64,000 bases of DNA from Candidatus Culexmicrobium cathedralense. GTDB taxonomy: Archaea > Thermoproteota > Methanomethylicia > Culexarchaeales > Culexmicrobiaceae. The DNA is taken from NCBI GenBank assembly GCA_025061115.1, contig JANZKC010000001.1:608001-672000 (forward strand), read 5' to 3'. This document shows, piece by piece, positions 2,094 through 22,557 of the stretch (its first letter is position 1; every line of letters starts with the position of its first letter). A program made the translations under genes and the position numbers. Under the pieces are notes generated by a model that was not told the DNA's origin, did no database searches, and was given only the letters and a program-made list of their open reading frames with translations.

Positions 2094-2183
2094 CTAAATC
2101 TAAACTAACACCAGAGTATTAAATATAATATAAACAGAAATTTAGATAAAAATGTCGTACATACAGGTTAAATTGAGGAGCTC

Positions 2184-2490
2184 ATGATCATGAAAGTTTC
2201 CATCCTCACATTAGACAGTCTTGAATACAAGCTAGTGGTAAAATGGAAGCTAAAGAATTTAATGCAATTAAAGTGCGGTTATTTTGAAGATAGCGACGAA
2301 TATTTGCATGAAGAGACAAAAGTTCCATATACCTATTACTTAGGCTTCATTCATAACGGGTAAAAAGCTGGAGGAGTATAGCGTTAGGACAAAATGGACA
2401 TATGGTTGACTTTTAGATATAATAAGACACATTGACACTATATAGAAAACTTAAAGGAAAAAGGCATGTTCTTTCTAAGTTCGGATCGAA
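2184..2490 (+). pseudogene. Decayed alkaline-phosphatase-superfamily (sulfatase/phosphodiesterase-like) gene
   Basis: GAGGAG RBS, then MIMKVSILTLDSLEY...; after a frameshift reads T*ASFITGKKLEEY (W>TAG in the usual WASFITG..P.EHG motif); further stops follow; 3' end approximate. Confidence 0.6.
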
Positions 2491-2542
2491 ACTAAAGTTT
2501 TTTATAAAATTTTAATTATGATTTCTTGAAAATTATCATAAA

Positions 2543-3679: not shown

Positions 3680-4145
3680 ATTTCTATTTCACTTATTCTC
3701 ATTTTTAAAATTCTCTAAAGTCTCTTTTCTAAGTATTTATATAATACAATACCATTTAACAGTAATTTTTAATATTACCTCTCAATTTAAAATATATTCT
3801 AAAAAATCACAAAATAATAAAGTTATATTACAGGATTAATTACTAGAATAATTGAAAAATATCACAAAAGGTAGCCACTAGTAAATTTTTCTTTTTAGAA
3901 CGCATAGCTAATAAAATATAAAAACTAATAAAAGATAAAGCTCATCATAAGTTATTTGTGGCAGCTAGAATGCATAAAAACTTCTTTGACAACCTTATAG
4001 CTATAATCATAATATTAACATTTCATATTTTATTGATTTGCAAGATAAGTTCATTATGAAATTAATCAAGAAAGCAGAATGTTATGTCGTAAGGTCAAAG
4101 CAGAAAAAATTTATGTAAACATAATCAATATTGGATATTTATAAT

Positions 4146-5400
4146 TTAATTAAAATATTTTTTAATAATTTTCGCTTCTGATTTAACAACATTACTCCAA
4201 CTTGAAAACTTATTTAAAAACATTCTTATTTGATGAAAATCGAATTTCAAATCTCCTTTGAGAAACTTAAATATTTTATTTGCCATTGCATTTACATCGC
4301 CAACTGAAACCCTTATTACGGCATTAACTCGTTCATAGTTGAATTTTATGGCAGGAATTTCATATGCAATAACAGGTATGTTATGTGATAGACTTTCCAT
4401 AATTGCTAGAGATATTGCATCTAGATAGCTTGGATATACCATAACCTTACATGTTTTTAACAAACTTGTAAGCTTGCTATGTGATAGAAAACCGAGAAAA
4501 GTTATGTAGTCATTTAAAGATAAACTTTCAATTAATTTGAAGAAAAAGATTTCTACACTTTTATTATAGAATTTGCCTGCAACTGCCAATTTGACGTTAA
4601 CCCCTTTTTCTAGTACTTTTTTCCAAATTAGAGGTAAATCCAAAACACCTTTTTTAGGTATTAACCTTGCGAAGAAAATTGCATCATAGTTCATATGCGG
4701 CTTACTAATGTTAGTTTTAGCTATATTCTTAATATGCTCATAAGATGTGTTTGGACCTAGAACTTTAAGCCTATTAATCCACTGATCCCCCATTTCATAG
4801 GGTATTGATTGTGATACTGATAAAATTAAGTCAAACCTTTTTAGTGTTCTTCTCAATATTATTTTTCATTTTATTTAAACTCATAATCGTTATCTTTTTA
4901 GATATTCTTTTTAAAGTTTTATTTGAGTAGATAATATTGTTGAAGTAGAAATTCAATTTAGGGATTCTGTCATCATGATAGAAAGGAGGTAAGCAAAGAA
5001 GCGCTATCTTAGGTATTCTCAATAAGTTTGAAAGATAATATGAAAAAATTATTAGCTTGAAATTTTCATGATGGCAATACACTGCGTCGAAATGATCCTT
5101 ACCATAGTTTTTAATAATTTCTCTAGCTACTTTTTCAGCACACTTGCGGCAAGCATAGAGATATTCAGAAGTTTTTGTAAGTAAGGTGTACTTAAGTACG
5201 TCGATTTTTTGGATGAAGTCAATGCTTCCAACGAGGTCGATATTTAAATTTTCTTCCCTAACATTTTTGATATGTCTCTTATAGGTTATTAAGTGAGGCT
5301 CAATATCATATTCTCCCAGGTACTTTAAACTCATTAAACTTCTTAAGCTGCCGCCACTTTGCTTACTTGGCGCCGAAACATAAAGTAATTTCAATTGCAA
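4146..5400 (-). pseudogene. Glycosyltransferase family 4 split by a frameshift
   Basis: ORFs 4831..5400 (N-domain, SGGSLR) and 4146..4856 (FARLIPKKG, PSYLDAISLAIMESL) overlap; removing one A from the A5 run in ATGAAAAATAATATTG near 4860 fuses them. Confidence 0.75.
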
Positions 5401-5624
5401 TTAAATACTCCTCAGCTGAAGGTTAATCTACTCTGTTAATCACTAACATATGAAATCATTTATAAACTAATGCTAGAATTCTATTAAGTTCACCTTTTCA
5501 GAAACTACATAGTAACACAAAGATTAGGACTCATAACGTTATAGTTATTGTAACTTTACATGCATCAGTTATCATGCAAAACTGCTCAAAGTATTTTTAT
5601 TCGACTAACTTAGGAATTTTACTT

Positions 5625-6605
5625 ATGAATTTCATTGTGGGTGTTGATGGCGGCGGGGTGAAGACGGAAGCAGTGGTAGCTACAGTTGAAGGCGAAATTA
5701 TTGGATTTGGAAGAGGGGGACCTTCCAATATTAACGTTGCAAGTAAAAAGGAAGTGGCAAGATCGCTTAGGAAGGCAATTTTTTCAGCTTTGAAGAAGAG
5801 TGGGGCTAGTGGTAAGGCACTTGCTGGAGTTTTAGGTGTAGCTGGAACTGAAAGGAGGGATAACGCCGAAGCAATTAGAGAAATTGCTTTAAAACTTGAC
5901 TTTGCTGAAAGAGTTATCGTTACTTCAGACGCCATGATCGCACTTATCTCAGCAACCAAGATGAAACCAGGCATAATATTAATTTCAGGCACTGGCTCAA
6001 TTGCCTTTGGAATGAATAGTAATGGAAACACTGCTAGAGCAGGCGGCTGGGGCTACATACTAGATGATGAGGGAAGCGGATACTGGATAGGGCTAAGAGC
6101 ACTTAGAGAAGTTATGAAAGCATATGATGGTAGAGGACATAGAACTACTCTTGCTAGCACTTTGTTTGATCATCTTAATATTGAACAGCCAGAGGATTTA
6201 GTATCAATGATTTATTCCGGAGAATTGAAAGTTTCAAACATAGCTTCACTCGCGGAATTAGTTGTAAAGTGCGCCAAAATGGGAGATCAAGTGGCTAATG
6301 AAATACTGAGAGAAGCTGGCGAAAAACTAGCTGAAATGGCTGTAGCTGTAGCTAAGAAATTGAAATTCAATAGTAAAGTTGACATCTATTATTTTGGAGG
6401 AGTATTTAAGGCAGGCAATCTCATCTTAAAGCCACTAAAAAATAAGCTGTACGAATTAGGAGTTTTCGCTGAATTTAGGAAATCCGAATTAAAGCCAGTA
6501 GTAGGCGCAGTCATCTTAGCATTAAAGGCATTAGGTATAGATTTAGATGAAAAAATCTGGGCAAACTTAGTCGATTCGGCTAAGGCATGGGGATTAGCTC
6601 ACTAA
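5625..6605 (+). CDS. BadF/BcrA-type N-acetylhexosamine kinase (MurK/GlcNAc-kinase-like)
   Basis: GVDGGG.KT, GPSN, SDA, ISGTGS, RAGGWGYILDDEGSGYWIG and GGVF motifs; start placed at ATG 5625. Confidence 0.85.
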   Translation: MNFIVGVDGGGVKTEAVVATVEGEIIGFGRGGPSNINVASKKEVARSLRKAIFSALKKSGASGKALAGVLGVAGTERRDNAEAIREIALKLDFAERVIVTSDAMIALISATKMKPGIILISGTGSIAFGMNSNGNTARAGGWGYILDDEGSGYWIGLRALREVMKAYDGRGHRTTLASTLFDHLNIEQPEDLVSMIYSGELKVSNIASLAELVVKCAKMGDQVANEILREAGEKLAEMAVAVAKKLKFNSKVDIYYFGGVFKAGNLILKPLKNKLYELGVFAEFRKSELKPVVGAVILALKALGIDLDEKIWANLVDSAKAWGLAH

Positions 6606-6658
6606 TTTCCAGACATAATTTAAGCTTTTACGACACCGCTCTCAATAAAATAGATAAT

Positions 6659-8632
6659 TTATGAGAATCTGCACATCATGAAATCTTTTTTTCCAAAACA
6701 GCTTGACCTCTTCGCAAACTTGCAAATTAACCCTATAATTTTAGGTAGTTCTTTAGGTCTTGTTGAAGGAAGCCCCAACCTTAAACTCTGAAACAGCTTA
6801 TAACTATTTTTAGCAACTCTAATTGGATGCGCGCCAACTCTAATTGCTGTGATAACATTAATCAAATTATCTTCCACAACTATTATTGGATCATCGCTAC
6901 CATAATTGAACCTGCTCATACACGCTTGGAAAAGTGACTCTTTCAATGGGCCAAAGCCTGAATCTCTACCTACCACATAGTGAAAAATGCTGGTTAAGCC
7001 AACCTTCTCCAATGCCTTGGAGGCGGATTTAACGCTTTGCTTGGTGGCTAAGCAAATATACGCTTCACTAGCCAACTTTCTCAAGTAATCCACTTCATTA
7101 ACTAATAGTTTCACATACCTAATTGAATTCAGTTCGAAAGACTCAATTACACTTGATGCTCTATAAAAATCCTCAACATTATTCATCCAAAGCCTAGAAA
7201 GAGCAGCAGAAACACTTTCCCATTTGAAGGCCAGATTAGCTTTAATAAGAGCTCTTTTGACTAAAATCCAATTAATATTAAAGTCGACTAACGTTCCATC
7301 AAGATCGAAAATGAACAAAGGCCTCTTCTTCGATCTCATCAATCTACTACATAGAGATTGAAACCATCTGCTCAAAGAACTTAAGCTTTTTTCTACACTT
7401 TTTCTCCACCTTATCTTCTCACTTTTCAAACTAGACAATCCAACTAATAATTGAGGTACAAGTCTAGTTGGGTCTGATAGGTGGAAATCGCTGAATCCAA
7501 ACCCTAGAAGGCCTTTTCGAGCCATGTACAGCCAAGTAGTAGGCACTTTAGCTAAATATCTAAGCCCATCAACAACCCAATAATACTCCCCCTTAAGTAC
7601 CTTTAGCGTTTTAGCCAACTTCTCAGCACTCTCCACTCCCTCTAAGTAAGCCAAAGCAAGTATCGCAGGAAAGTGATAGCCAAGAGATACGGAAAGATGC
7701 AAGCTACCCCAAAACTTAGGGTTAAGCTCAATGACATAGTACTTACCTAGCTCATAATTCCACTTTGTTTCAACCATGAGAGGGCCGCTCCACCTTAAAT
7801 GCCTAACAACAGCTCTACCCAATGCGTAAAGATTCGGATCCATCATTGGACCTTTAGCAGCTAAACTAGCACCACCACTTGGGTCGTATTCAACAATTCT
7901 TTCATGAGTAAATTCTAGTAGAGGAGTGCCCTCATAAGCTACTACGTAATATCCTCTAGCTCTTCCAGGAGCGTACTCTTGGACAAGGCATGGAGCCCTC
8001 TTTAACGCCATTTCAGCTGCTAGCTCATGCGAGATAACATACTCAGGTTTAGAGGCGTCTCCCAAACCCTTAACAACAAGCGGCGGTTTTAAATCTCTAA
8101 TTAGGTTAACATTCTCTGAGCCTTTTACAATCACTAAGCTAGGGACCTCAGCAATTCCCTTAAGAGTTTTTGGCAAGTCCCCTTTGCTTGAAGCCTTAGC
8201 AACTGCCTCATAACTAGGCGCAGCTACTTTAACTTCAAATTCATCAAAAATCTTGATGTACTTCGAAAATGTAGCTACATCAATAAAATCTACAGGTACT
8301 ACAAGATCAGCAGCTACATTTCTTGCCAGCTTAGCTACAGCTAAAGCCCATGCAGCTTTTTCCCTATCAACTTTAACAATGTGTTTCTCATCTAGAAGCT
8401 TGGAGTAATTATGAGGATGGTGAACTCTATGAGACACGCCGATAATTTTAGCTTTAATAACCTCCTTCAACGAGTACATCATCCCAATAGCTTTGCGAGA
8501 TGCTATGGAGGCTAATAAAATTTTATATGTCATCATTAATACACCCACATCCAACACATTAACGACGGAATATTTTATCACCTTACCTCCGCGATCCAGC
8601 TTTCGCGATGTTAAGTATGAAAATTGAACCAA
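6659..8632 (-). CDS. ATP-grasp (carboxylate-amine ligase-like) domain fused to a C-terminal HAD domain
   Basis: LVQEYAPG, GPLMVETK and IELNPKFWGS ATP-grasp motifs; FIFDLDGTL HAD motif I; true start probably about 100 nt inside (MMTYKILL). Confidence 0.8.
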   Translation of the reverse strand: MVQFSYLTSRKLDRGGKVIKYSVVNVLDVGVLMMTYKILLASIASRKAIGMMYSLKEVIKAKIIGVSHRVHHPHNYSKLLDEKHIVKVDREKAAWALAVAKLARNVAADLVVPVDFIDVATFSKYIKIFDEFEVKVAAPSYEAVAKASSKGDLPKTLKGIAEVPSLVIVKGSENVNLIRDLKPPLVVKGLGDASKPEYVISHELAAEMALKRAPCLVQEYAPGRARGYYVVAYEGTPLLEFTHERIVEYDPSGGASLAAKGPMMDPNLYALGRAVVRHLRWSGPLMVETKWNYELGKYYVIELNPKFWGSLHLSVSLGYHFPAILALAYLEGVESAEKLAKTLKVLKGEYYWVVDGLRYLAKVPTTWLYMARKGLLGFGFSDFHLSDPTRLVPQLLVGLSSLKSEKIRWRKSVEKSLSSLSRWFQSLCSRLMRSKKRPLFIFDLDGTLVDFNINWILVKRALIKANLAFKWESVSAALSRLWMNNVEDFYRASSVIESFELNSIRYVKLLVNEVDYLRKLASEAYICLATKQSVKSASKALEKVGLTSIFHYVVGRDSGFGPLKESLFQACMSRFNYGSDDPIIVVEDNLINVITAIRVGAHPIRVAKNSYKLFQSLRLGLPSTRPKELPKIIGLICKFAKRSSCFGKKDFMMCRFS

Positions 8633-9688
8633 TTAAACACTACTTATCCAATAGTTGTAAATTTCCTCAGCACTAGTCATCCAAGCCTTCTTTTCTTTCA
8701 GATACATCAAAATTTTCTCATAAAGCTTTGCCCAATCTCCATAACGTAATTCATCAAAAGTGTTGTTGTGCCAAAGAATCGTTATCACGCCATTATTTCT
8801 CTCTGTAACATCTATTAAATGTTTTATAATGTCATAGGCTTTACTAGGACTTATACGCATGTATCCATAGAAAGTTGTATCCATCACCACTAAGGGAATT
8901 TCCAGGATGTCTATCTCGGCATCCTTGTTTAGGTCATATGGTTTAAACGGGTGGCACATTCCATTTCTGAAACCCGGCATATCAGGGTATCCGAAGGTGG
9001 TATCATACTTGAAACCCAGCTGAGCTAGTAGATTCCAGGTATCAGGTACCTGAAACCTTAGGTAATGCATCCGCACTCCAATAACCCTTTTCCCTACAAC
9101 CTTTTCTACTCTCTCCCTTTCTTTAGCCAATTCTTTAGGATCATTATAAGAGTAATATCCTCCATGAAGGCCGACCTCCCAACCCATATCAACAATGTAC
9201 GCAAATTCATCCGTCAACTCATTGATATCATAAACTGAACCAAAATCTCTTGTTGCTGATTTAAAGAAAAAAGTAGATTTTGCATCATATTTATTCTCAA
9301 GTTCAATAATATACCTAAAATTCCAGTAAGGGCTAAGTGACTTGCTTTTAGTAATTCCTCCAAAAAAGCGCTTAAAGCTTTCAACTAACCTTTGGTTTTT
9401 AAGAAGTTTAAGCGTTGCAGAGAAAATGTGTTTCCAATTTGGATGAATATGATCTATGTCATGAGTTAAACATGCTGCAAATCTGAAGCCCTCAGGCCAA
9501 GCAATATCCATAATACCTTCTTTGACAAGGTAACTTGAAACAACAGGATCAAATGCATTCTTGTAATTTGAGAATTTATATATGAAACGCCCATGCTCGT
9601 CCTTCATACTACTATATTCCTGTTTTGCAGTAAAAATATCAAATAGCTCCTTTTCACGTTTTATCTTCTCAACAAAAGGAACCTTCAT
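8633..9688 (-). CDS. Polysaccharide deacetylase family protein
   Basis: LTHDIDH, EVGLHG, RMHYLRF, YDTTFG and ILWHN motifs. Confidence 0.85.
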   Translation of the reverse strand: MKVPFVEKIKREKELFDIFTAKQEYSSMKDEHGRFIYKFSNYKNAFDPVVSSYLVKEGIMDIAWPEGFRFAACLTHDIDHIHPNWKHIFSATLKLLKNQRLVESFKRFFGGITKSKSLSPYWNFRYIIELENKYDAKSTFFFKSATRDFGSVYDINELTDEFAYIVDMGWEVGLHGGYYSYNDPKELAKERERVEKVVGKRVIGVRMHYLRFQVPDTWNLLAQLGFKYDTTFGYPDMPGFRNGMCHPFKPYDLNKDAEIDILEIPLVVMDTTFYGYMRISPSKAYDIIKHLIDVTERNNGVITILWHNNTFDELRYGDWAKLYEKILMYLKEKKAWMTSAEEIYNYWISSV

Positions 9689-9864
9689 TTGACCCCCCTC
9701 AAATGAAGTAGCCTCGTTATCATTATGATTATTGTCATTTATACCATTTATTAATATAATTTTAAGCGTATAATTTTAGCCAACTAAAAACAAGCTTAAA
9801 AGGATGAGGTGATGAATCATAGCTACTTATTTAAATATTAAAAATAAATTGAATATAAAAATCA

Positions 9865-10680
9865 TTAAAATTTGATTAATAATCTACAAAGAAAATTTTT
9901 TAGTTTTTCAATATATCTTCTCTTTTGCAATTCCTTCATAAAATCGGAAATATCTGATGATGATTCCACAGAGCTTATGAATCCAGCTATCATGTGCACG
10001 CCTAGAGCAAGAGACCGCATGGAAAGTAGCACGCTTCTACTAATAGCATAAGGCCACCAATATCCAACTACCTTCATCGCCTTACCCCATAAAAAGGCTT
10101 TTCTAGGAGACACTCTAGTGGGTCTTATGAGCTTGAACTTGAGGTCATCATAAGTCCGCGCATTATAACCCTGCGATAAAGCCTTAAAAATAAGCCATGG
10201 CTCAAAGCCATAAATTAGGGGATACCTATAACCAATACTCTTAAACCAATCGGCATCAACAAGCCTACCTGCACCTCTCACACCATATTCACTGCTTTCT
10301 TCACCAACAGCAATGCCAGAGGCTACTACAACCCCATCGCGCATCATCCTCTTTGCCAGCTCCTCGACATAGTGAGGAGGCTAGAGGCAATCAGCACCTG
10401 AAATCATCACGTAATCTAGCTTAAGTGACTCGAGAACTTCAAAGCCCTTATTTATCAGATAAGCGATATAAGGTGTCCCTACCATATTTGCAGTGGATTT
10501 TCTCTTAATCCTTATAACTGTGGCGCCTAATTTCTCAGCAATATCAGCGGTCCCGTCAGAACTAGAATCGTCCACTACAACTATCTTTTGAGGGGGAATT
10601 GATTGTCTCAACAAGCTTTTCAGAGTTAACCCAATGAATTTTCTCTCATTTCTAGCTGGTATTACGACGCCATATTTCAT
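9865..10680 (-). pseudogene. Glycosyltransferase family 2 interrupted by a single in-frame TAG
   Basis: VVIPARNE, VVDDSSSDGT; reads GADCL*PPHYVEELAKRMMRD in one frame, stop at 10381-10383. Confidence 0.8.
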
Positions 10681-11086
10681 GAATCACACCCATATGTCTG
10701 TCAACTGCACTATATTCCTAATAAAGCATCTATAAATTATTATTGAACCACTTTCTAATCAATTTTCGAACTATAAAACATTCTAAACTATAAAATAAAA
10801 TTTCTAACACTACAATCAAGAAAACTTGAAAGAGATTTACATGTTGTAAGAAGCTCTGGCGAGGCAGCATTTTAAAAGACGCATTTACTGCAACTAAGCC
10901 AGTTAAATTACTTTGGAAAAGCATTTTATATGAGTGTAGAATCATTATTCACTCAAAGTAGAACTAAAAACTAATTTCAAACCAGCAGTGAAAGCATTAA
11001 TTTTGGCGCTTAAAAATTAGCAAATAGAGGTAAATGAGGATGAGTGGAACGTGCTTTTACAATCAACTAAAAGTGGAGGTTAATCA

Positions 11087-12046
11087 ATGAATTTTAGCGA
11101 GGAAGAGAAGAGAATATTCGAGGAGCTCTCTAGGCTTGAGACCGAGCAGATAAATCCGAGGGCTCAGCAATTAAGTGAGCTGCCAACGATAGAAGTCCTA
11201 AAGGTGATTAATGAGGAAGATAAGAAGGTTGCCTATGCTATTGAAAAGGAGCTCCCAAGAATAGCTGAAGCAGTTGAAGTGATAGTTGATGCGGTGAGAA
11301 GAGGTGGAAAGTGGATATATGTGGGTGCGGGAACGAGCGGTAGGCTTGGAGTAATCGATGTTGCTGAGCTGCTTCCAACCTATAATGTCGGGCCGGAAAC
11401 TGCAGATGCCATTATAGCCGGCGGGCCGGGAGCAATGTTCAGGCCTATAGAGGGAGCGGAAGATGATGAGGAAATGGCGGTGAGAGAGCTGAAGGCTAGA
11501 AGGCTAAGGAGCAAAGACGTGGTGATTGGAATTTCAGCCAGTGGGAGAACGCCTTTCGTAATTTCAGCGCTCAAGTACGCGAGAAAAATTGGAGCTAAAA
11601 CTGTGGCGATAACCTGCGTCAAGAACTCTCCAATAACAAGGCACGCAGATATAATTATTTGCCCTCAAACTGGGCCGGAAGTAATCACCGGCTCAACAAG
11701 AATGAAGGCTGCAACAGCCCAAAAAATGATTTTGACGATGCTTAGCACTGCAGTCATGGTTAGGCTTGGAAGGGTTCACGGAAGCCTAATGGTGACTCTA
11801 GAGCCAGTTAGCAAAAAGCTCATTGAAAGAGCTAAGAGGATCATAATGATAGAAGCTGGAGTGAGCTATGAGGAGGCTGCTGAGCTGCTGGAAATGTCGG
11901 GTGGAAATGTCACCGTAGCCATAGTAATGGCAAAAGCTGGAGTTAATAGGGAAATTGCAGAGAAGCTCTTAGAAGCCTCAAACAACATACCTACAAGGGC
12001 AATTAAGCTTGCAGAGGAGCTGAAATGCAGTGAGAAGGAAAGCTGA
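11087..12046 (+). CDS. murQ: N-acetylmuramic acid 6-phosphate etherase
   Basis: TEQINP, YVGAGTSGRLGVIDVAE, EGAEDD, GISASGRTPFV, GPEVITGSTRMKAATAQKM and C-terminal helical domain: the full MurQ signature. Confidence 0.95.
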   Translation: MNFSEEEKRIFEELSRLETEQINPRAQQLSELPTIEVLKVINEEDKKVAYAIEKELPRIAEAVEVIVDAVRRGGKWIYVGAGTSGRLGVIDVAELLPTYNVGPETADAIIAGGPGAMFRPIEGAEDDEEMAVRELKARRLRSKDVVIGISASGRTPFVISALKYARKIGAKTVAITCVKNSPITRHADIIICPQTGPEVITGSTRMKAATAQKMILTMLSTAVMVRLGRVHGSLMVTLEPVSKKLIERAKRIIMIEAGVSYEEAAELLEMSGGNVTVAIVMAKAGVNREIAEKLLEASNNIPTRAIKLAEELKCSEKES

Positions 12047-13205
12047 AGTAAAAGTTAAAACTGGACTTGACATCCTTGTAGAGGAGGACTTCAGGAGAAT
12101 TAGAGGATATACCATTGGAGTTGTGGCAAATCAAGCTTCAACAACGAGAAACCTAACCCACCTAGTTGAAGAAGCAAAGAAGAAAAGGCGATGCAATTTA
12201 GAGATAGTATTCTCGCCGGAGCACGGATTTTTAGGCGAGAGGCCGTGCGGAGAGAAGATCGCTGGAGAGTACTACGATCTAGACTATAACGTAAGGGTCT
12301 TCAGCCTATATGGAGAAAGTTTTAAGCCGCCAATAGAGCTTCTTGAAAAGCTCGACGCGCTAATATTCGACCTGCAAGATGTAGGTGTAAGGTGGTACAC
12401 CTACACGTCAACGCTATACTACTGCATCGAAGCCTGCGGCGAAGCAAAAACCCCAATATACGTGCTGGACAGGCCCAATCCAATAACCGGAGAAGTAATT
12501 GAAGGCCCAATTCTAAATCCAAAGTACAAGTCGTTTGTGGGAATTGCAGAAGTTCCCGTGAGGTATGGGCTAACAATAGGGGAATTAGCATTACTATTAA
12601 ACGACAAGTACAATCTAAAAGCAGACCTGCAAGTAGTTACAATGAAAAACTGGAAGAGAGATTATTGGTTTAAGGACACTGGGCTACCGTGGATTCTCCC
12701 ATCCCCTAACATGCCAACTCCAGAAACAGCACTAGTCTATCCTGGAACAGCACTACTTGAAGGAACCAACATCTCCGAAGGTAGGGGGACAACCAAGCCA
12801 TTCGAACTGATAGGAGCTCCATGGATTAAAGCCAGCAAGCTGGCTAAGGAACTAAATGCCCGAGGTCTGGCCGGAGTCATGTTTAGGCCAGCCTACTTTA
12901 GGCCCAGCACATCCAAGTACGCGGGAGAGCTATGCGGAGGAGTTCAAGTGCATGTGGTTGATAGGGAGGAGTTCAGAGCATTTGAAGTTGGAGTTCACAT
13001 AATATGCGCAATTAGAAACCTATATGAAGACAAGCTTCGATGGATAAGAAGAGGTCCAATCTACTTCATAGATCAGCTGGCTGGAACAAATAAGCTAAGA
13101 GAAATGGTGGATAGTGGAGTGGATGCGTGGGAAATAGTTGATAAACTCGAAAGGGAGCTAGACAAATACGTAATTGAAAGGGAGAAGTACCTGCTATACT
13201 TCTAG
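12030..13205 (+). CDS. namZ: Exo-beta-N-acetylmuramidase (DUF1343/YbbC family)
   Basis: FSPEHG, SLYG, FDLQDVGVRWYTY, VLDRPNP, YGLTIGELA, PSPNMP and SEGRGTTKPFE motifs; no signal peptide. Confidence 0.93.
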   Translation: MRRKAEVKVKTGLDILVEEDFRRIRGYTIGVVANQASTTRNLTHLVEEAKKKRRCNLEIVFSPEHGFLGERPCGEKIAGEYYDLDYNVRVFSLYGESFKPPIELLEKLDALIFDLQDVGVRWYTYTSTLYYCIEACGEAKTPIYVLDRPNPITGEVIEGPILNPKYKSFVGIAEVPVRYGLTIGELALLLNDKYNLKADLQVVTMKNWKRDYWFKDTGLPWILPSPNMPTPETALVYPGTALLEGTNISEGRGTTKPFELIGAPWIKASKLAKELNARGLAGVMFRPAYFRPSTSKYAGELCGGVQVHVVDREEFRAFEVGVHIICAIRNLYEDKLRWIRRGPIYFIDQLAGTNKLREMVDSGVDAWEIVDKLERELDKYVIEREKYLLYF

Positions 13206-14806
13206 CCACCAACTAGAGGAACCCTAGCAAACACGTCGTCTATATTAACTGGAAGGCGGCCGCCAGCTTGCAGCTCTCCAAACAAAATCCTAACCAGCGC
13301 CTCAAGCTGAGGCAATGTAATGCCATAAGTAGCGATGAAGCACTTAACCTGCGGAAAAGCCTTAACGTCATATGGGTCTCTAGAAGCAACAATCACAGCA
13401 TTACCCAGCTTATCAACCCGATTAACAAGTTCAATCTGGCCGGGATTCAGCAATGCATTATAAGTGAAAACAATTATTGCATCGCAAAATTCAAGATCAC
13501 CCAGCAACCCCTCGACTTCCTCACGTGAAGGATCCACTGAATAGATTTGGACGCTCAGCTCTTCACACTTTCCGCTGAAAATGCTATTCAATAAAACTTC
13601 AATACCCCCATGCTCCGCACCCAACCTGCCTGCAAGCTTATCTGGAACAGCTATGCCCAGCCTTCCCAAACCACCGCTTAGAGGCAGCAAACCCTCATCC
13701 TTAACAACGGTTATCGAGCTAACAGCAATTTCAAGCACGGCCTTCCGATGGGAATTGCAGCCGACAACCGATAAAGCAGCAGGATCAAACCTGTAGCTGT
13801 AAAGGCCGAATTCCCTCCTCAAACTCTCAATTCTCGCGTAAGACTCGATCAACCTATGCTTATCAATTCTGCCAGCCTCAACACCCTTGATAATTTCATC
13901 CTTGAGCTCAATCATTAGGTCATAATCACTGGCCGGCAATAGCAAGTCAACGCCAGCATTCAATGCGAGAGCTACAATCTCCTTAGGCTCGAAGCGATCG
14001 CGAATAGCCTTCATCTCCAAAGCATCAGTCATAACAACTCCATCAAAGCCAAGCATCCCCCTCAATATTCCACCCACAATTGGCTTTGAAAGCGTAGCTG
14101 GAAGCCCCGACTCATCAATTTTAGGATAAGCTATGTGAGCAGCCATAATTGACGATACGCCGGCTTCAACTGCAGCCTTAAATGGAATCAATTCACGCTT
14201 AACCATTTCCTCCAAGCTCAAGTTCAAAACCGGAAGGTCCAAGTGGGAGTCAACCGAAGTGTCGCCGTGACCTGGAAAGTGCTTCGCAACAGCCATAACT
14301 CCATTAGATTGAAGGGATTTAATGTAAGCTTCACTGAAGGCAGCAACCTCAATTGGATCATCGCCGAAGGATCTAACCCCAATAATAGGATTAACAGGAT
14401 TGGTATTTACATCAACAACTGGAGCTAAATTCATGTTTATGCCAATAGCCTTCAACTCCTTAGCTGCAATTTCAGCTACAATTCTAGCGCATTCAATTCT
14501 CCTAGTAGCTGAAATTGCCATTAAGCTGGGAAGAGATGTTGCTCCGCGGCTAATTCTCACAACAATTCCACCCTCATAATCTATGGAGACTATCAGTGGA
14601 GGCAAACCAATCTTCTTTGCAAAGGCCTGAAAGTCTTTAATTAATCCGGCAAGCTGCTTAGGGTCAACGATGTTCCTCTTGAACAATATTATTCCAGACG
14701 GCTTAATGACCTTCAAAAGCTCTTCATGCTCCTCAGAAAACTCAACACCATGGAAGCCTACCATCATAAGCTGACCTGAAAGGAAGTTCAAATCCATCAG
14801 GCTCAC
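13202..14806 (-). CDS. nagZ: GH3 beta-N-acetylglucosaminidase
   Basis: Diagnostic KHFPGHGDTSVDSH, plus IDYEGG, LAPVVDV, RSFG and MTDALEM nucleophile; C-terminal GH3_C domain. Confidence 0.95.
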   Translation of the reverse strand: MSLMDLNFLSGQLMMVGFHGVEFSEEHEELLKVIKPSGIILFKRNIVDPKQLAGLIKDFQAFAKKIGLPPLIVSIDYEGGIVVRISRGATSLPSLMAISATRRIECARIVAEIAAKELKAIGINMNLAPVVDVNTNPVNPIIGVRSFGDDPIEVAAFSEAYIKSLQSNGVMAVAKHFPGHGDTSVDSHLDLPVLNLSLEEMVKRELIPFKAAVEAGVSSIMAAHIAYPKIDESGLPATLSKPIVGGILRGMLGFDGVVMTDALEMKAIRDRFEPKEIVALALNAGVDLLLPASDYDLMIELKDEIIKGVEAGRIDKHRLIESYARIESLRREFGLYSYRFDPAALSVVGCNSHRKAVLEIAVSSITVVKDEGLLPLSGGLGRLGIAVPDKLAGRLGAEHGGIEVLLNSIFSGKCEELSVQIYSVDPSREEVEGLLGDLEFCDAIIVFTYNALLNPGQIELVNRVDKLGNAVIVASRDPYDVKAFPQVKCFIATYGITLPQLEALVRILFGELQAGGRLPVNIDDVFARVPLVGG

Positions 14807-15900
14807 CTCACGAGCGAAGCTGCAATTACGTTGTGAAGCTTAGGCCTAACATCTTTAATAGATGTGTTCTCCCTAGTTGGATGCACCCTTTTAGTTAGGA
14901 ATATGACGATCAATCTTGCTTCGGGATCTATCCACAAGGAAGTGCCGGTAAATCCGGTGTGCCCATAAGACTTGTCGGAGAATAGGTCGCCGCACGAAGA
15001 CCCAAAGGACTTGACATCCCACCCCAAACCCCTAGCTTCACCCAAGTCCGTAGTGTGGTTCATGGTCATCAACTTCGCGGTTCTAGGACTCAGAATTCTA
15101 ACCGCATTGTAGGAGCCGAAGTTGAGCATCATTTGAGCAAAAATTGCTAAGTCAAGTGCAGTTGAAAACAAGCCTGCATGCCCAGAAACGCCGTCCATCC
15201 TATACGCATTCTCATCATGAACTTCACCCCAAACAATTCGCCCCCTAAACTTGCAATACTCGGTTGTTGCAATTCTCTCCCTCGACTCCGCCGGAGGATT
15301 GTACATGGTGTCATTCGTGCCGAGAGGAGTGAAAATCTCTGAACTTGCAAACTCATCAATTCTAGCTCCGCAAAGCTTCTCTATGATTCTAGTTAAAATT
15401 ATGAAGCCAACGTCACTGTAAATCACTGTTTCGCCGGGCTTGCGCTCAAGGCCAGTACTTAAAGCCAAATTAAATACATCCTCCCTACTGGAAGCAGTCA
15501 AGTAAAATGGCTTCCAAGCAGGTAAACCTGAAGTGTGAGTTAGCAAGTGCATTAAAGTCACATCCTCCCGCCCATCGCCACTAAAGTTCGGTAAATACTT
15601 GCACACGGGATCGTCGAGGCGGAGAAGCCCTCTCTCAAGCAGAATCATCGCGGAGGTTGCAGCCACAACAGGCTTAGTTATTGAAGCTAGGTCGAAGATC
15701 GTGTCGATCCTCGTAATCCGCCTATCAGGAACAAGCATCGAGAAGCCGAAGGCCTTATGGTAAGCGATGAAGCCATCTTTTACAATTAGCAGAACTGCAC
15801 CTGGAAAGGCTCCACTTTCAATGCAGTTCACAATGAAATCATCTACTCGATTTAAACGCTTAACCGAAAATCCAACGTCCTCCGGACTGCACCTCTCCAA
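14803..15900 (-). CDS. Serine hydrolase of the beta-lactamase/AmpC family, probable AmiE-type N-acetylmuramyl-L-alanine amidase
   Basis: FDLASITK (SxxK), LLTHTSGL, YSD, GEVHDENA, GHAGLFSTA and GHTGFTGTS motifs; coupled to nagZ as in the Bacillus nagZ/amiE locus. Confidence 0.8.
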   Translation of the reverse strand: MERCSPEDVGFSVKRLNRVDDFIVNCIESGAFPGAVLLIVKDGFIAYHKAFGFSMLVPDRRITRIDTIFDLASITKPVVAATSAMILLERGLLRLDDPVCKYLPNFSGDGREDVTLMHLLTHTSGLPAWKPFYLTASSREDVFNLALSTGLERKPGETVIYSDVGFIILTRIIEKLCGARIDEFASSEIFTPLGTNDTMYNPPAESRERIATTEYCKFRGRIVWGEVHDENAYRMDGVSGHAGLFSTALDLAIFAQMMLNFGSYNAVRILSPRTAKLMTMNHTTDLGEARGLGWDVKSFGSSCGDLFSDKSYGHTGFTGTSLWIDPEARLIVIFLTKRVHPTRENTSIKDVRPKLHNVIAASLVR

Positions 15901-15970
15901 TCAAGCCCACCAATAAAAGCTTGCACGCAACTATAATATCACTTTGACCACAACCATCTAGGGAGAGCTG

Positions 15971-17170
15971 ATGAACCCAATTGAAAAATTGGCTAAGCTC
16001 CAAAGCAAAAGGCGCAAAATCGCCGTAGGATTAATGTCAGGAACATCAGTCGACGGAGTTTCAGCAGTACTAGTTGAAATTGAGGGAAACTGGCTAAACA
16101 CGAAGTTCAAGATAATCGGCCACAAAACCTACCCTTACCCAAATGAGGTTAGGGAGAAGATATTCGAGCTGTTCGATCCTGAAACTGGAACGGTGGATAA
16201 GATCTGCACCATGAACTTCATTTTAGGGAAAATATTTGCTCAAGCAGTATTGAAAATAGCTGAAGAGTGCGGATTCCCAATTGGAGACGTAGACTTAATT
16301 GCAAGCCACGGACAGACAATCCACCACATGCCAAGGAAAATTAGAATTGCAAACTACGAGTCCAAGTCGACGCTGCAAATTGGCGAGCCATCAGTGATAG
16401 CTGAGGAGACAGGAGTGCTGACAATTGCAGACTTCAGGCCAAAAGATGTAGCTGCAGGCGGAGAAGGAGCACCAATAAGCGCATACGCAGACTACATAAT
16501 TTTCAGAAGCAGCAAAGCTTCAAGGGCAATTCAAAACATCGGAGGAATAGCAAACGTAACCTACATACCTAAAAGTGCGGATTTAAGCGAAGTCATAGCA
16601 TTCGACACTGGGCCGGGAAACATGCTAATAGATGCAATGGTAAAACGCGTAACAGACGGGAAAATGAAGTACGACTCCAATGGAAAGTTGGCTGCAAAGG
16701 GAAGAATTTCAGAGGAGCTGCTAAGCTGGCTCATGAATCACCCATACATCCATAGAAAACCTCCAAAAACAACTGGTCGAGAGGAATTTGGAGAAAAATT
16801 CGCCGAAAAAGTATTTGAAAAGGCAGCTGAGCTGGGAGTGAAAGGAGAAGACCTAATTGCAACAGTAACTATGTACACAGCCAAAACAATAGCAGAAAGC
16901 TACCGAAGACATCTACCCACAATGCCGGATGAAGTCATTGTCGGCGGAGGAGGCTCATACAATAAAACTCTAATGAAAATGCTGAAGGAAGAAATTGAAG
17001 AGGCAAAAATAATGACCCACGAAGACTTCAGAATACCTGCACAGGCAAAGGAGCCCCTAGTAATGGTTATCCTAGCAAATGAAGTAATTCACGGACACTT
17101 CAACAACATTCCAAACGCCACTGGAGCCTCAAGGAAAGTGATTATGGGAAAAATAGTTTTTGGAAATTAA
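15971..17170 (+). CDS. anmK: Anhydro-N-acetylmuramic acid kinase
   Basis: GLMSGTSVDG, SHGQT, DFRPKDVAAGGEGAP, NIGGIAN, FDTGPGN, PKTTGREEF, GGG and AKE motifs. Confidence 0.95.
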   Translation: MNPIEKLAKLQSKRRKIAVGLMSGTSVDGVSAVLVEIEGNWLNTKFKIIGHKTYPYPNEVREKIFELFDPETGTVDKICTMNFILGKIFAQAVLKIAEECGFPIGDVDLIASHGQTIHHMPRKIRIANYESKSTLQIGEPSVIAEETGVLTIADFRPKDVAAGGEGAPISAYADYIIFRSSKASRAIQNIGGIANVTYIPKSADLSEVIAFDTGPGNMLIDAMVKRVTDGKMKYDSNGKLAAKGRISEELLSWLMNHPYIHRKPPKTTGREEFGEKFAEKVFEKAAELGVKGEDLIATVTMYTAKTIAESYRRHLPTMPDEVIVGGGGSYNKTLMKMLKEEIEEAKIMTHEDFRIPAQAKEPLVMVILANEVIHGHFNNIPNATGASRKVIMGKIVFGN

Positions 17171-17176
17171 AATGCC

Positions 17177-18208
17177 TCACCCCAACAGCTTCCTATCAAA
17201 TTCAACCAGCTCAGGATGAACAAACCTCCCATCCTTCAGTAAGCAAGTGCCATCAACGTAAACCGTTGGATTCAAGCAATTTCCATCAGAATGAGCCTTA
17301 GCCCTTCCAACCTTACCTTTAAATCTAAGCGACTGAGAGCCGAAGCCAAACTCTATGCAGCCATAAACCCTCTCATCCTCAAGTGGAACTCCAGTCAACC
17401 TAGCTCCAGGATTAAATCCGAAGGATACATGAGCAATATAATACATTTTGGGGTCATTGAAGCCTGCAAGCCAGCGCTTAAAGGCCTCAGCCTCCCAGCC
17501 ACCCTCAACATCAACAATTCTCCCCTCCTCAATGGTTAAAGCTACAGGTGAAGAGAGTACGCCGACATTCTGAGGAGGCCAAAGAAATCCGTCCAGAACA
17601 AGCCTACCATTAATGCTCTTCTCAATTGGAGCCCAAGAAACTTGCCCGCCCAGAAACTTCAATTCACCCGGCTTGCGAACCTTACCATCATTATGGTAAA
17701 CCGGCCTATGGGGATCGTTTTCCATCACAAGTGAAGTCCCCTTAGGAGAATGCACTTCGATTTTCCTCGCCATTGAAATCACCTTTGCAAGCGCATCGCC
17801 AAGCTTGCACATCGCCTCATAATCCACCTTGCCGATCAACCTAATCATCATGTCAGGATTCATTCCAGTCAAATCGCAAATCCTAGCCCCAGCATTTAGA
17901 GCCTCGTAGAAAGCATTGGTATGAATAATATATTGGTATACGAAGTCTATGATGACGTCACTTGAAGCCATTGCAGCTGCAACTGGCTTTGGAGGCTCAA
18001 CATTAACCTCGCTCCTAGTCTCATAAACAACTTCAACAGCCTCACCTCCAACCGCATGAGCCATGGCGGTGACCACATCAACCATACTTCTGTCAACTGC
18101 AGTATCAGCTAAAACTAGAACTGACTCACCAGCTTCAACGCCAGCTAAAAGCTTCACGACCTTATATGCAGCTCTAGCAAGCTCCATAAACATGCGGCCA
18201 CCAAGCAC
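17177..18208 (-). CDS. Aminopeptidase T / M29-like metalloprotein (leucyl aminopeptidase-like)
   Basis: VEPP, GT.L, IAHVSFGFNP, EDERVYG.I.FGFG and AHSDG pattern of the thermophilic metalloprotease/NicX superfamily. Confidence 0.65.
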   Translation of the reverse strand: MLGGRMFMELARAAYKVVKLLAGVEAGESVLVLADTAVDRSMVDVVTAMAHAVGGEAVEVVYETRSEVNVEPPKPVAAAMASSDVIIDFVYQYIIHTNAFYEALNAGARICDLTGMNPDMMIRLIGKVDYEAMCKLGDALAKVISMARKIEVHSPKGTSLVMENDPHRPVYHNDGKVRKPGELKFLGGQVSWAPIEKSINGRLVLDGFLWPPQNVGVLSSPVALTIEEGRIVDVEGGWEAEAFKRWLAGFNDPKMYYIAHVSFGFNPGARLTGVPLEDERVYGCIEFGFGSQSLRFKGKVGRAKAHSDGNCLNPTVYVDGTCLLKDGRFVHPELVEFDRKLLG

Positions 18209-18290
18209 AAACTATTACATGGCTAGTATTACTAGGTTGCGCTAACGCGAATTGAGGATAATAAAGTTATGTAAAAAGAGTGCGGAGCTC

Positions 18291-19601
18291 CTAGTACCTC
18301 CTACGCATATACTGGAGAAGCAATATCACAATTATTATCACTATTAAAGCAGCAACCACGTAGAGCGTCGCTGGAGGAGGTGGAGGAGGACGACTACTAA
18401 CATTTACAGTCACTGAATTCGACTGAACATTATCAGCAACTGCGCGCGCCGTGTATGAGCCGGCCTCTCCAAAAGTCACCGTAAACGAAGCAACGCCATT
18501 AGCGTCGGTAGTCCTTATGCTGTAAAGCTCATCGTTAATGTATAGAGTTACGCTGACGCCGGACATCGGATTGCCATTTTGATCGTGAACCGTAGCTCTA
18601 AATGTAACTGGCTCGCCAGTTACGGCGGACTCCTTATCAACCTCCAAGCTTATGCTAGTCACAGTCGGAGCTGGCGGCAGAGGGCTGACGGTCACCGTAA
18701 TAGTGTTGGACTTCACGGAGTCCGCGATCGCATATACTTCGTGAGCACCCTCAACATCAAATCTAACTAGGAATACAGCTGCACCTCCAATTCCAGCATA
18801 CTTGGTGTCGTAGAGCTCTCCATCAACCATCAAATCGACTTGAACTCCAGCCATAGGACTACCGTACTGGTCTCGGACTGTTGCCGTAAAGATCACTACA
18901 CCCCCAACATCAACTTCAGTTGTTTCAGCGTCAAGCAATATGCTGTGAACTGCAGGGGGCTCGCGAACAGTTATATCAACAGTATTCGATTGAACGCCAT
19001 CAGCTACCGCGTAAACTTCAAAGACACCCGCTTCATCGAAAGTGACGTAGAAAGTTACTGTACCATCATAAGAGGAATTCCGAGCCCCGTAAAGCTCCCC
19101 ATCAATGTATAGTTTTACTTCAACATTGGCCATGGGGTCGCCATACTGATCATAGACTACAGCAGTGAATGCCACCACATCTCCAACGTAGATCATGCGT
19201 ATATTGGCAGTAAGCTCAACCCTACTAACTACTGGTGGAGGAGCACTAACAGTAAACGTGCACGTACTAACACTACCAGTGGAAACATCCTTAGCATAAA
19301 GCGTATAATCTCCAGTGGGCCAGTCGCTTGGAACCTTCAGCTGCATGGTTAGAGTGCCATCTGAAGATGCAACATCCTCCCAAACCCACATTGGACCAGT
19401 AGGCCCATTAAGCTGAAGCATAACCTTTCCATTTGGAGTAGCGCCTGAGACAGTTATCGTCATAACCTCGCCCAATCTATATGAAGACTTGTCGGTTGTA
19501 ACAGTAAATGAGGCATACACTAGAACTGTGGTAAACGATAGGGCGAAGAGCAAAGTTAGTGTTAGCAAAGCCAAACCCCTTAGTCTCATGATAATCACCA
19601 C
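18291..19601 (-). CDS. Cell-surface protein with tandem Ig-like (Big_1-like) repeats, signal peptide and C-terminal membrane anchor
   Basis: Three repeats of F.A.V.DQ.G.PM..V.V.L..DGELY...F...G...V.A.AD.V.SN; Pro linkers; TM helix followed by RRR. Confidence 0.85.
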   Translation of the reverse strand: MVIIMRLRGLALLTLTLLFALSFTTVLVYASFTVTTDKSSYRLGEVMTITVSGATPNGKVMLQLNGPTGPMWVWEDVASSDGTLTMQLKVPSDWPTGDYTLYAKDVSTGSVSTCTFTVSAPPPVVSRVELTANIRMIYVGDVVAFTAVVYDQYGDPMANVEVKLYIDGELYGARNSSYDGTVTFYVTFDEAGVFEVYAVADGVQSNTVDITVREPPAVHSILLDAETTEVDVGGVVIFTATVRDQYGSPMAGVQVDLMVDGELYDTKYAGIGGAAVFLVRFDVEGAHEVYAIADSVKSNTITVTVSPLPPAPTVTSISLEVDKESAVTGEPVTFRATVHDQNGNPMSGVSVTLYINDELYSIRTTDANGVASFTVTFGEAGSYTARAVADNVQSNSVTVNVSSRPPPPPPATLYVVAALIVIIIVILLLQYMRRRY

Positions 19602-20158
19602 TAACCTTGAACTTGGAAGGTAAATTCAAGCCCACTCTTGGAAGCTAAAGGTACTCCTCCCTCATCAAGCCAGTTGCTCCACACCATAACCTTAACCTTA
19701 TAAGTTCCAGTTGGGGCATCATCCGGAATTCTATATCCAATGCCAGCAGACTCGGTTTCGCCTGGAGATATCTCCTCAACAACGAAACCCATGAACACTG
19801 GAGTATTCCCATACATTACTTGGATTAGTAGCAAGAACTTAGTTGGCGTAGTGAAGTAGTAATAAGAGGTAGTATCTCCAAAGTAGTAAGCATATGCCAT
19901 CTCGATAGTTGCGTTTATCAAGACCAGCTCGCCTCTGCTAAATGTGCTCTTAGGATTTCCCGTCTGATCAGCGCTGAAAGCTGTAGTTATGTCTAGGGGT
20001 AATTCTTGAGATGGAGCTATGAAGCTCGCCAATGAGCCAATATAGCTGATTAAAGCGCCAACAGCAATAACTGCTACCAGCACTATTGCTATTAACCGCT
20101 TAGCGTCAATTTCAATGACAATCTCCCTAATTTCACCTTCGGGCAAAGCTTCTCCCAT
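19601..20158 (-). CDS. Membrane-anchored beta-sandwich protein, function unknown
   Basis: N-terminal TM helix; C-terminal IPDDAPTGTYKVKV Ig-like motif; coupled to the Ig-repeat gene. Confidence 0.7.
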   Translation of the reverse strand: MGEALPEGEIREIVIEIDAKRLIAIVLVAVIAVGALISYIGSLASFIAPSQELPLDITTAFSADQTGNPKSTFSRGELVLINATIEMAYAYYFGDTTSYYYFTTPTKFLLLIQVMYGNTPVFMGFVVEEISPGETESAGIGYRIPDDAPTGTYKVKVMVWSNWLDEGGVPLASKSGLEFTFQVQG

Positions 20159-20358
20159 CCATTAAATTCTATTGAATCATATTAAAGCGCCATCTATTTA
20201 TATGTTATTCCCTCCCAATAAAGCCCTATAAATTAGCAACATACTTAAGCTAACCTAAAATAACAAATAAATATTCATAATAACATTAGCAAAGTAAATT
20301 TACACAACGGAAATAGAGGCATTGCCTAGCCATAAGCAAAGTTGGTTGGAGGGCGAAA

Positions 20359-22089: not shown

Positions 22090-22141
22090 CAAGCTAATAA
22101 TTTAATTGAGAATGACAAACAAGCTTTCGAGGTGAAAGTTC

Positions 22142-22453: not shown

Positions 22454-22557
22454 AATGCTAAGTAGGTAGCCATTGAAATAACGTGCATCATTCAATTAAA
22501 ACTTAAAGGCTCTGAGAATTAACGTTAAATACAATTAAACAAGTACTTTGTGTAGAG

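Follow-up and report, generated by a model that had tools for sequence, protein, structure and literature searches.

A candidate cytoplasmic salvage route for bacterial murein fragments encoded in an archaeal genome

Genes and features of the cluster

The stretch of DNA analysed here, called the window below, comprises 64,000 nucleotides of Candidatus Culexmicrobium cathedralense (G000:C1:608001-672000) and belongs to a contig of 843,365 bp in a genome of 1.98 Mb in 25 contigs. It carries a core cluster of five genes, murQ-namZ-nagZ-serine hydrolase-anmK (11087-17170), whose products are predicted to process fragments of murein with its sugars MurNAc (N-acetylmuramic acid) and GlcNAc (N-acetylglucosamine). 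A sixth gene, for a MurK-like sugar kinase, lies 4.5 kb from murQ. Table 1 lists these genes and the other features with their positions in the window. A preliminary description of this DNA had named seven open reading frames (ORFs), namely the six genes above and an M29-like one beside anmK, and all seven were found intact.

namZ begins inside murQ, the two genes sharing 17 nt. On the minus strand, the gene for the serine hydrolase lies upstream of nagZ with a 4-nt overlap. The short spacer between this unit and anmK is a putative promoter region; it holds an A/T-rich ACTATAATAT box and, 5 nt upstream of the anmK ATG, the motif GGGAGAG. In front of murQ, GGAGG is found 8 nt upstream of the ATG. 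These ribosome-binding motifs had been described as archaeal in style, a label that has to be dropped since they are ordinary GGAGG/GGGAG motifs and not diagnostic.

Table 1. Position, strand and supporting matches of the features in the window. GC: G+C content.
Feature	Position	Strand	Match or remark
MurK-like BadF/BcrAD-family sugar kinase	5574-6605	+	PF01869 1.5e-49
Intervening lower-GC block	6659-10680	-	ATP-grasp/HAD fusion, VimE-like polysaccharide deacetylase, two GT2 pieces (Pfam, NCBIfam)
MurQ, MurNAc-6-phosphate etherase	11087-12046	+	TIGR00274 334.5 bits vs cut-off 302
NamZ (GH171) exo-beta-N-acetylmuramidase homologue	12030-13205	+	PF07075 1.8e-77; PF20732 2e-56
NagZ-type GH3 exo-beta-N-acetylglucosaminidase, two domains	13202-14806	-	PF00933 2.8e-86; NF003740 225.6 vs cut-off 207
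PBP4B/YfeW-like serine hydrolase, beta-lactamase fold	14803-15900	-	PF00144 5.4e-71
Divergent intergenic spacer, 70 bp	15901-15970		Between amiE-like/nagZ unit and anmK
AnmK-family anhydro-sugar kinase	15971-17170	+	PF03702 1.5e-98; NF007148 491 vs cut-off 387
NicX/M29-like protein, possible aminopeptidase	17177-18208	-	PDB 7cn3 (NicX dioxygenase) 9e-16
GlcD-like FAD-linked oxidase	30663-32063	+	PF01565 and PF02913; TIGR00387 341.7 vs cut-off 567.9
Cdc6/Orc1	39985-41028		Same 43-47% GC block as cluster
RadA	41471-42412		Same 43-47% GC block as cluster
Family-B polymerase (PolB)	43466-45589		Same 43-47% GC block as cluster

The assignments of MurQ, NagZ and AnmK pass curated cut-offs, and NamZ is matched over both of its domains in full length (profile positions 1-202 of 203 and 1-152 of 152). 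Comparisons with solved structures bear out five of the six assignments. MurQ contains SIS domains, has 4s12 as its best PDB match (5.6e-76) and is 44% identical to E. coli MurQ. In the BLASTP alignment its Glu94 and Glu125 fall on Glu83 and Glu114 of the E. coli enzyme, which we take to be the catalytic glutamates. For NamZ the best PDB match is 4k05 (GH171/DUF1343; 9e-75). The glutamate of its PEHG motif, Glu64, is kept in 146 of 153 aligned rows and stands at residues 81-97 in the Bacillus-type rows. It may correspond to the conserved Glu92 at the tip of strand 2 of BsNamZ (PMC8054146). The best PDB matches of the NagZ-type protein are all beta-N-acetylglucosaminidases, namely 6k5j (3.2e-93), 4zm6 and B. 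subtilis YbbD 3bmx (4e-72). Its translation contains KHFPGHGDTSVDSH, which aligns with the same motif of 6k5j and which we take to be the NagZ signature with the Asp-His dyad, KH(F/I)PG(H/L)Gx4D(S/T)H.

The preliminary description had seen no signal peptides, and none is possible on NamZ, NagZ or the AmiE-like serine hydrolase, whose longest ORFs begin only 10-28 mostly charged residues before the conserved domains. NamZ has 10 residues ahead of its first conserved block and so departs from the characterised members of the family, which are exported. The N-terminal extension is at most 11 residues in 25 of 30 archaeal NamZ rows, and this cytoplasmic type is not confined to archaea, as 6 of 18 named bacterial rows also have no extension. 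The three hydrolases are thus predicted to be cytoplasmic, in which case the fragments would have to be imported whole.

The match of AnmK to PF03702 covers positions 3-365 of 367, and NF007142 is also exceeded (454.6 vs cut-off 435). The protein contains a DTGPGN motif, and its nearest named bacterial relatives are annotated as AnmK and come from thermophilic Clostridia. The MurK-like kinase has as its best PDB match 8zo3, entitled 'N-acetylmuramic acid/N-acetylglucosamine kinase' (7.9e-53) and presumably the clostridial MurK, followed by the S. tokodaii hexokinase 2e2n (3e-48). No T. forsythia MurK structure was among its PDB matches at 1e-10, and its score for the NagK_SO3507 equivalog is below cut-off (144 vs 370).

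The serine hydrolase is 35% identical to E. coli YfeW/PBP4B (6e-68), and yfeW is annotated directly after murQ-murP in E. coli K-12. Its SITK, YSD and HTG agree with the expected SxxK, Yx[NSD] and [KH]TG motifs. It may be a MurNAc-L-Ala amidase of the AmiE type or a peptidase of the stem peptide. In a metagenomic protein of 593 aa (P0217), the C-terminal GH3 domain PF01915 is fused to a PF00144 serine-hydrolase domain. The AmiE-like assignment rests partly on this fusion, which joins two enzyme types whose genes adjoin and overlap in the window. The amidase named in the preliminary description is thus a putative assignment from gene context, the likeness to YfeW and the fusion.

The product of the NicX/M29-like gene was described as an M29-like peptidase, and this holds at the level of the superfamily only. 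There was no Pfam match even at E up to 5, PF02073 included, and none in NCBIfam in the copies that we used. The Atlas clusters it falls in are named 'aminopeptidase T' (score 0.96-0.98), with PF26233 (NicX) in 95-100% of the members and PF02073 (Peptidase_M29) in 26-37%. Of 20 archaeal loci, just two have the gene next to the cluster, namely the window and locus L035 of the same genus (89% identity). It is confined to one genus, and its link to the pathway is weak.

Archaeal host, distribution and descent

The host of the cluster is an archaeon, as the preliminary description held. The cluster sits 620 kb into the contig, and genes for Cdc6, RadA and PolB, which had been reported from the same window, were found 23-28 kb downstream of it. 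A contig of the same genus is labelled Candidatus Methanomethylicota archaeon, and the named relatives carry the label Candidatus Methanomethylicota or Methanomethylicia. Archaeal metagenome-assembled genomes (MAGs) supply the closest homologues of NamZ, the serine hydrolase and AnmK, with named bacteria from about 50% identity downward. Genes of this kind from archaea already have names in public annotation, one entry being 'anhydro-N-acetylmuramic acid kinase [Candidatus Methanomethylicia archaeon]'.

A check of coverage and contig taxonomy had been recommended, and it gave no sign of a chimera or contaminant. A single unitig spans 4001-11253 (glycosyltransferases, kinase, inserted block and start of murQ), and another spans 16987-22915, from the end of anmK to native surface-protein genes, so that both borders are bridged. 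The read depth is even (72-102) across 4001-24000 in run X1, which may be the source run, and the run of a second study contains a strain that is 95-99% alike. The tetranucleotide correlation with the genome is 0.80 for the cluster, equal to the median of 57 genome windows of similar GC, and 0.78 for the cdc6-polB stretch. Inside anmK (16157-16593), three runs contain a short-sided joint (16176 to 16593) that omits 416 nt, its sides being 20-21 letters, and a loose end at 16157 is common to two runs; variation between strains or an artefact of repeats may explain this. Searches for tRNAs and Rfam families gave none in the window. Among the eight public runs listed, no RNA run contains the window, which says nothing on expression.

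The distribution was surveyed in 401 genomes sampled across the phylum (161 genera). NamZ_N was found in 41 genomes (20 genera), MurQ over cut-off in 36 and AnmK in 34. NamZ occurs with MurQ in 34 genomes, and 27 of the 34 genomes with AnmK have MurQ too. All three are found together in 26 genomes, and at least one of them in 45. In the order of the window, 9 of 10 sampled genomes have NamZ and MurQ, the exception being 57% complete, and all 10 have AnmK; the remaining orders of the class, with about 50 genomes sampled, gave none of the three. The cluster had been taken for a feature of one odd genome, and this view has to be given up for an order-wide trait that is patchy across the phylum. 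Since mcrA is absent from all 12 genomes of the order and present in 36 of 62 of the class, the trait marks the non-methanogenic branch of the class.

Some genomes have NamZ and AnmK without MurQ over cut-off. One is a closed single-contig genome of another family (G059; loci L045 and L046), which also has an AmiE-like gene and, in L045, a heparinase II/III-like gene 4.7 kb from NamZ; G123, G226, G379 and G382 show the same combination. We know of no outlet for MurNAc-6P without MurQ, as would be the case in these five genomes.

Synteny was compared in the 20 archaeal loci, 18 of them centred on NamZ and two on AnmK. The preliminary description had counted the upstream kinase as part of the system and had called for a survey of archaeal genomes for the same synteny. 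The survey bears the kinase out: kinase, murQ and namZ are contiguous in 12 of the 20 loci, and the kinase abuts namZ or murQ in 15. The window's own order contributes seven NamZ loci; all seven have the contiguous kinase-murQ-namZ and anmK, and six have nagZ. In 7 of the 20 loci, the serine hydrolase lies close to the cluster with an identity of at least 40%. Only in the genome of the window does the block at 6659-10680 (GC 0.376 vs 0.456 for the cluster) part the kinase from murQ. In the same-family genome G272 (locus L028), the block genes lie beyond the kinase and the kinase abuts murQ, and the block is probably outside the pathway.

Other archaeal families have a transporter next to the cluster, either an SBP_bac_5 ABC system or an oligopeptide transporter (OPT). 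For example, in two loci of unrelated families, L036 (G174) and L044 (G015), the cluster is flanked by an OPT and a protein of 1134-1696 aa, FtsX-like by eye, and L036 also holds a C39-like peptidase and an ornithine/diaminopimelate (Orn/DAP) decarboxylase. A PIG-L deacetylase and a GNAT protein are found between namZ and murQ in L040-L042. Near namZ in six bacterial comparator loci there are murQ and/or a kinase, and no AmiE or NagZ homologue was found in these six loci even at E 1e-3.

The cluster is accompanied by the same native neighbours in nine other genomes of the order, one of them on a contig of 1.08 Mb. For AnmK, the identity is 81% within the genus, 68-71% within the family and 56-63% within the order, and the native neighbours reach 72-74% (Sat) and 77% (phosphodiesterase) within the family. 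The identities of the cluster thus drop with taxonomic distance about as those of its native neighbours do. We also built a NamZ tree with FastTree from 153 mostly unlabelled rows (120 best matches and the locus sequences). The window falls in a clade of 21 rows (support 100) made up of own-order and unlabelled rows, with no named bacterium within. Its sister clade (support 99) holds 16 rows of other Thermoproteota, and all 18 named bacterial rows are elsewhere, in a group that includes five archaeal rows. Tree and identities fit an old acquisition that was inherited vertically in the order afterwards, with more than one transfer in the phylum as a whole; the tree names no donor. The cluster would then be of bacterial origin and long fixed in an archaeal order that lacks mcrA.

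Proposed route, rival explanations and surroundings

In the genome no MurA was found over cut-off (best 87 bits, probably AroA-like), and there is no MurB_C and no Mur ligase (Mur_ligase_M). Self-recycling is therefore excluded, in agreement with the preliminary description, and the substrate has to come from outside. We consider it likely from the gene content that the cluster encodes a cytoplasmic salvage route for bacterial murein fragments. Soluble muropeptides or peptide-free glycan pieces would enter through a transporter, the GH3 NagZ would take off the terminal GlcNAc, the PBP4B/AmiE-like serine hydrolase would remove or trim the stem peptide, and NamZ would take off the terminal MurNAc. 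The MurK-like kinase would phosphorylate MurNAc and GlcNAc at O6, and AnmK would turn 1,6-anhydro-MurNAc, which is the terminus that lytic transglycosylases leave, into MurNAc-6P. MurQ would finally cleave the lactyl ether of MurNAc-6P to give GlcNAc-6P and D-lactate. Together, the six families are predicted to cover each step from the disaccharide-peptide to GlcNAc-6P. The presence of AnmK suggests anhydro-muropeptides, which are bacterial turnover products, as a substrate. The route as far as GlcNAc-6P and D-lactate is well supported; we infer the substrates, the order of the steps, the import and all that follows GlcNAc-6P. For the by-product of MurQ, the GlcD-like oxidase encoded 13 kb from the cluster is a candidate D-lactate dehydrogenase.

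Several results weigh against this salvage route, and import is one gap. The cluster encodes no transporter, AmpG was not found over cut-off in any of the 12 genomes of the order (only weak matches of the major facilitator superfamily, MFS, at 25-33 bits), and the genome has no linked orthologue of the OPT and SBP_bac_5 transporters that adjoin the cluster in other families. Two membrane proteins of the window were considered as importers and rejected. The MFS protein at 47559-48881 resembles a drug-efflux or general MFS transporter, and the 576-aa protein at 20359-22089 resembles a GT-C glycosyltransferase. Four families of murein lysins, SLT, Amidase_2, GH25 and Amidase_3, were searched for and none was found in the genome. 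The organism thus has no evident means of releasing fragments itself, and scavenging of fragments that are soluble already is likelier than lysis of cells. The preliminary description had expected an importer and a secreted lysin elsewhere in the genome, and the search gave neither an importer nor a member of these four families.

The gap downstream of GlcNAc-6P belongs to the same account. The best NagA match is 30.8 bits to TIGR00221 (cut-off 225.65), and no NagA was found at 1e-10 in the 12 genomes of the order. NagB (PF01182), PIG-L (PF02585) and a stand-alone NagB-II were not found in the window's own genome, which has GlmS only. It is therefore as likely that GlcNAc-6P is reused in the cell's own glycans as that it serves energy. 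Because no NagA was found in the order, a non-orthologous enzyme probably carries out the deacetylation. The strongest candidate is a 465-aa amidohydrolase encoded 1.8 kb before the window (G000:C1:604823-606220), which is 68% identical to the gene directly after the kinase in all five loci of two sister families. Its family occurs in 9 of the 401 genomes, all of the window's order, a restriction that is confounded with descent. It resembles dihydroorotases and D-aminoacylases over its N-terminal 70 or so residues only, and NagA is not among the listed matches; it could be the missing deacetylase, and its sequence fits the D-aminoacylase/dihydroorotase types equally well.

The levoglucosan-kinase match of the AnmK homologue, given below, counts against the route too, and further reservations concern the serine hydrolase. 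It scores 233 bits against the NF002968 (PBP4B) cut-off of 385, and its solved relatives are unnamed beta-lactamase-fold proteins and the archaeal D-stereospecific CubicO peptidase Pab87 (2qmi, 7e-26). Its designation as AmiE-like is tentative.

When other explanations are weighed, it is quite unlikely that the enzymes act on non-murein substrates, such as chitin or GlcNAc oligomers, the organism's own N-glycans or envelope sugars, or anhydro-sugars like levoglucosan, and that the names MurQ, AnmK and NamZ overstate their specificity. MurQ exceeds its equivalog cut-off with both aligned glutamates kept, and we know of no substrate of this family besides MurNAc-6P. NamZ, MurQ and AnmK co-occur in the survey as given above, and a genome without MurA and MurB has no lactyl-ether sugar of its own by a known route. 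Against these points stands the AnmK homologue, whose best solved match is the fungal levoglucosan kinase 4zxz (4e-78), ahead of the bacterial AnmK 3cqy (5.6e-64) and another one (1.7e-49). The likeness of the kinase to the broad-range S. tokodaii hexokinase, the five genomes with NamZ and AnmK and no MurQ, and the own-glycan glycosyltransferase and deacetylase genes that adjoin the cluster count in the same direction, and GH3 NagZ enzymes cleave chitooligosaccharides too. On the other hand, the characterised NamZ did not cleave GlcNAc substrates (PMC8054146). A further explanation accepts murein fragments as the substrate and has them serve only the supply of amino sugars for own glycoproteins (GlcNAc-6P to UDP-GlcNAc), not carbon or energy. 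This agrees with GlmS as the only enzyme found, there being no NagB, NagB-II or PIG-L route to fructose-6-P, with the position of the cluster among glycosylation genes (GT1, GT2, GT-C-like membrane protein, Big_1 surface protein) and with T. forsythia, for which a preprint describes anabolic salvage with the same enzyme families (10.1101/2021.12.02.470905). It is nevertheless unlikely, as the bacterial and archaeal UDP-GlcNAc route also requires deacetylation to GlcN-6P, for which NagA is missing. Moreover, MurQ discards the lactyl group as D-lactate with a GlcD-like oxidase encoded nearby, and the cluster of other archaeal families, with PIG-L, the Orn/DAP decarboxylase and Opp- or OPT-type transporters, looks catabolic.

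That bacterial DNA was misjoined to or misbinned with an archaeal genome is hardly credible. The genome has an estimated contamination of 7.65% at a completeness of 99.99%, close to the left border the GC jumps from 0.31 to 0.46, and all six families are typical of bacteria; the contamination estimate has to be counted against the salvage route as well. All of this is outweighed by the place of the cluster deep in the contig with archaeal replication genes downstream, by unitigs that bridge both borders at even depth, by a composition equal to that of native windows, by the archaeal MAGs that hold the nearest homologues of three proteins, and by the recurrence of cluster and native neighbours in nine other genomes.

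The salvage route in the cytoplasm is thus the explanation that we retain, and the earlier interpretation is partly supported. It was right on the archaeal host, the foreign substrate and the processing in the cytoplasm, and it overreached in speaking of catabolic feeding, in view of the missing NagA in the order and the missing NagB, PIG-L and stand-alone NagB-II in the genome. A wider proposal is more doubtful, and we put it forward only tentatively: this order without mcrA in the methanogen-rich Methanomethylicia may live partly on muropeptides shed by co-resident bacteria of hydrothermal sediment, with the order-specific amidohydrolase in place of NagA.

The surroundings of the cluster show some other features. 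The GC is low at 1-5400 and 54000-64000 (0.30-0.38) when compared to the part between (0.43-0.48), and 1-5400 is packed with GT1 and GT2 glycosyltransferase genes. These stretches look like variable glycan-synthesis islands around a higher-GC core. In the block between kinase and murQ, the GT2 gene at 9865-10680 consists of two adjacent ORFs of 99 aa and 160 aa. An identical split is seen in the same-family genome G272 (L028 17473-18240), which could reflect a frameshift common to both genomes or an arrangement of two genes that has been conserved. On the other side, at 18291-22089, there is a trio of genes, one for a Big_1 surface protein that carries a signal peptide and a C-terminal anchor and two for membrane proteins, of 185 aa and of 576 aa (the GT-C-like one); this trio adjoins the cluster in three loci of the window's family. 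At 22000-46000 the plus strand has a strong A-over-T skew of 0.2-0.4, and nearly all long ORFs there are also on the plus strand. Before the window, a 307-aa ORF (L053 6961-7884; G000:C1:596961-597884) lies beside an 890-aa protein with an invasin-like domain. Considered as an M23-like peptidase, it was rejected: its Peptidase_M23 score of 22 bits is below the cut-off (28.7), and it lacks a signal peptide.

Significance and comparison with known systems

Murein is a large pool of carbon and nitrogen in sediments, nearly all of which bacteria are believed to recycle. With a sugar-processing route conserved and passed on vertically within an archaeal order, and present in roughly a tenth of the phylum's sampled genomes, some archaea would be consumers of wall material from bacteria. 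If the wider proposal above is true, it would be the first pathway in archaea for murein's sugar half and a direct answer on whether archaea use the bacterial cell wall as a resource. The cluster gives concrete genes to track in metatranscriptomes and isotope probing, and the absent NagA and absent importer are specific gaps that can be tested.

Two reports on archaea come close. The D-stereospecific PF00144 enzyme Pab87 led in 2009 to the proposal that muropeptides feed Thermococcales (PMC2651629). In 2025, secreted archaeal murein hydrolases were found to kill bacteria, and their authors left a scavenging purpose open (PMC12352652); our cluster bears on this question of killing versus scavenging. 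Those systems concern the peptide moiety or extracellular lysis, whereas the present one would be an intracellular sugar branch, and neither report mentions MurQ, NagZ or the catabolism of muramic acid. In open-access papers and bioRxiv preprints we found no paper on MurQ, AnmK or NamZ catabolism in archaea, although supplementary tables may mention it. In the main text of the Culexarchaeia paper, peptidoglycan, muramic and murQ have zero occurrences.

Among bacteria, the B. subtilis operon murQ-murR-murP-amiE-nagZ-namZ(ybbC) serves muropeptide rescue and MurNAc catabolism, and the order of NagZ, then amidase, then NamZ has been demonstrated for its enzymes (PMC8054146). The archaeal cluster shares four of its six families with the operon (MurQ, NamZ, NagZ and an AmiE-like PF00144 protein) and implies the same exo-lytic order. 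The two differ in that NagZ, AmiE and NamZ are secreted in B. subtilis and without signal peptides in the archaeon, and in that B. subtilis takes up MurNAc through the phosphotransferase system (PTS) transporter MurP under the regulator MurR, whereas the archaeon would phosphorylate it with a kinase and adds AnmK. A search for SIS domains gave no RpiR-type SIS regulator; PTS genes were not searched for.

The scavenging cluster of T. forsythia, ampG-namZ1-murT-murK-murQ, is described in a preprint (10.1101/2021.12.02.470905). By that account T. forsythia, which takes MurNAc from neighbours, has like the archaeon no MurNAc synthesis of its own, a PTS-free route, and a MurK-type kinase and NamZ clustered with MurQ. 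It differs from the archaeon in needing MurNAc for its own wall, in NamZ enzymes with signal peptides and in having MurT and AmpG encoded beside them; in the archaeon there is no wall to build, the cluster contains no transporter and the kinase is closer to 8zo3. With the recycling of Gram-negative bacteria of the E. coli type (AmpG, NagZ, AmpD, AnmK, MurQ, NagK, NagA), the archaeon shares breakdown in the cytoplasm, NagZ, AnmK and MurQ, and the third gene of the E. coli murQ-murP-yfeW cluster encodes the YfeW related to the archaeal serine hydrolase. In contrast to that pathway, the archaeon has no AmpD (Amidase_2), no AmpG over cut-off and no NagA, and it adds NamZ and a MurK-type kinase. 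The archaeal system is thus a hybrid of the B. subtilis, T. forsythia and Gram-negative recycling systems.

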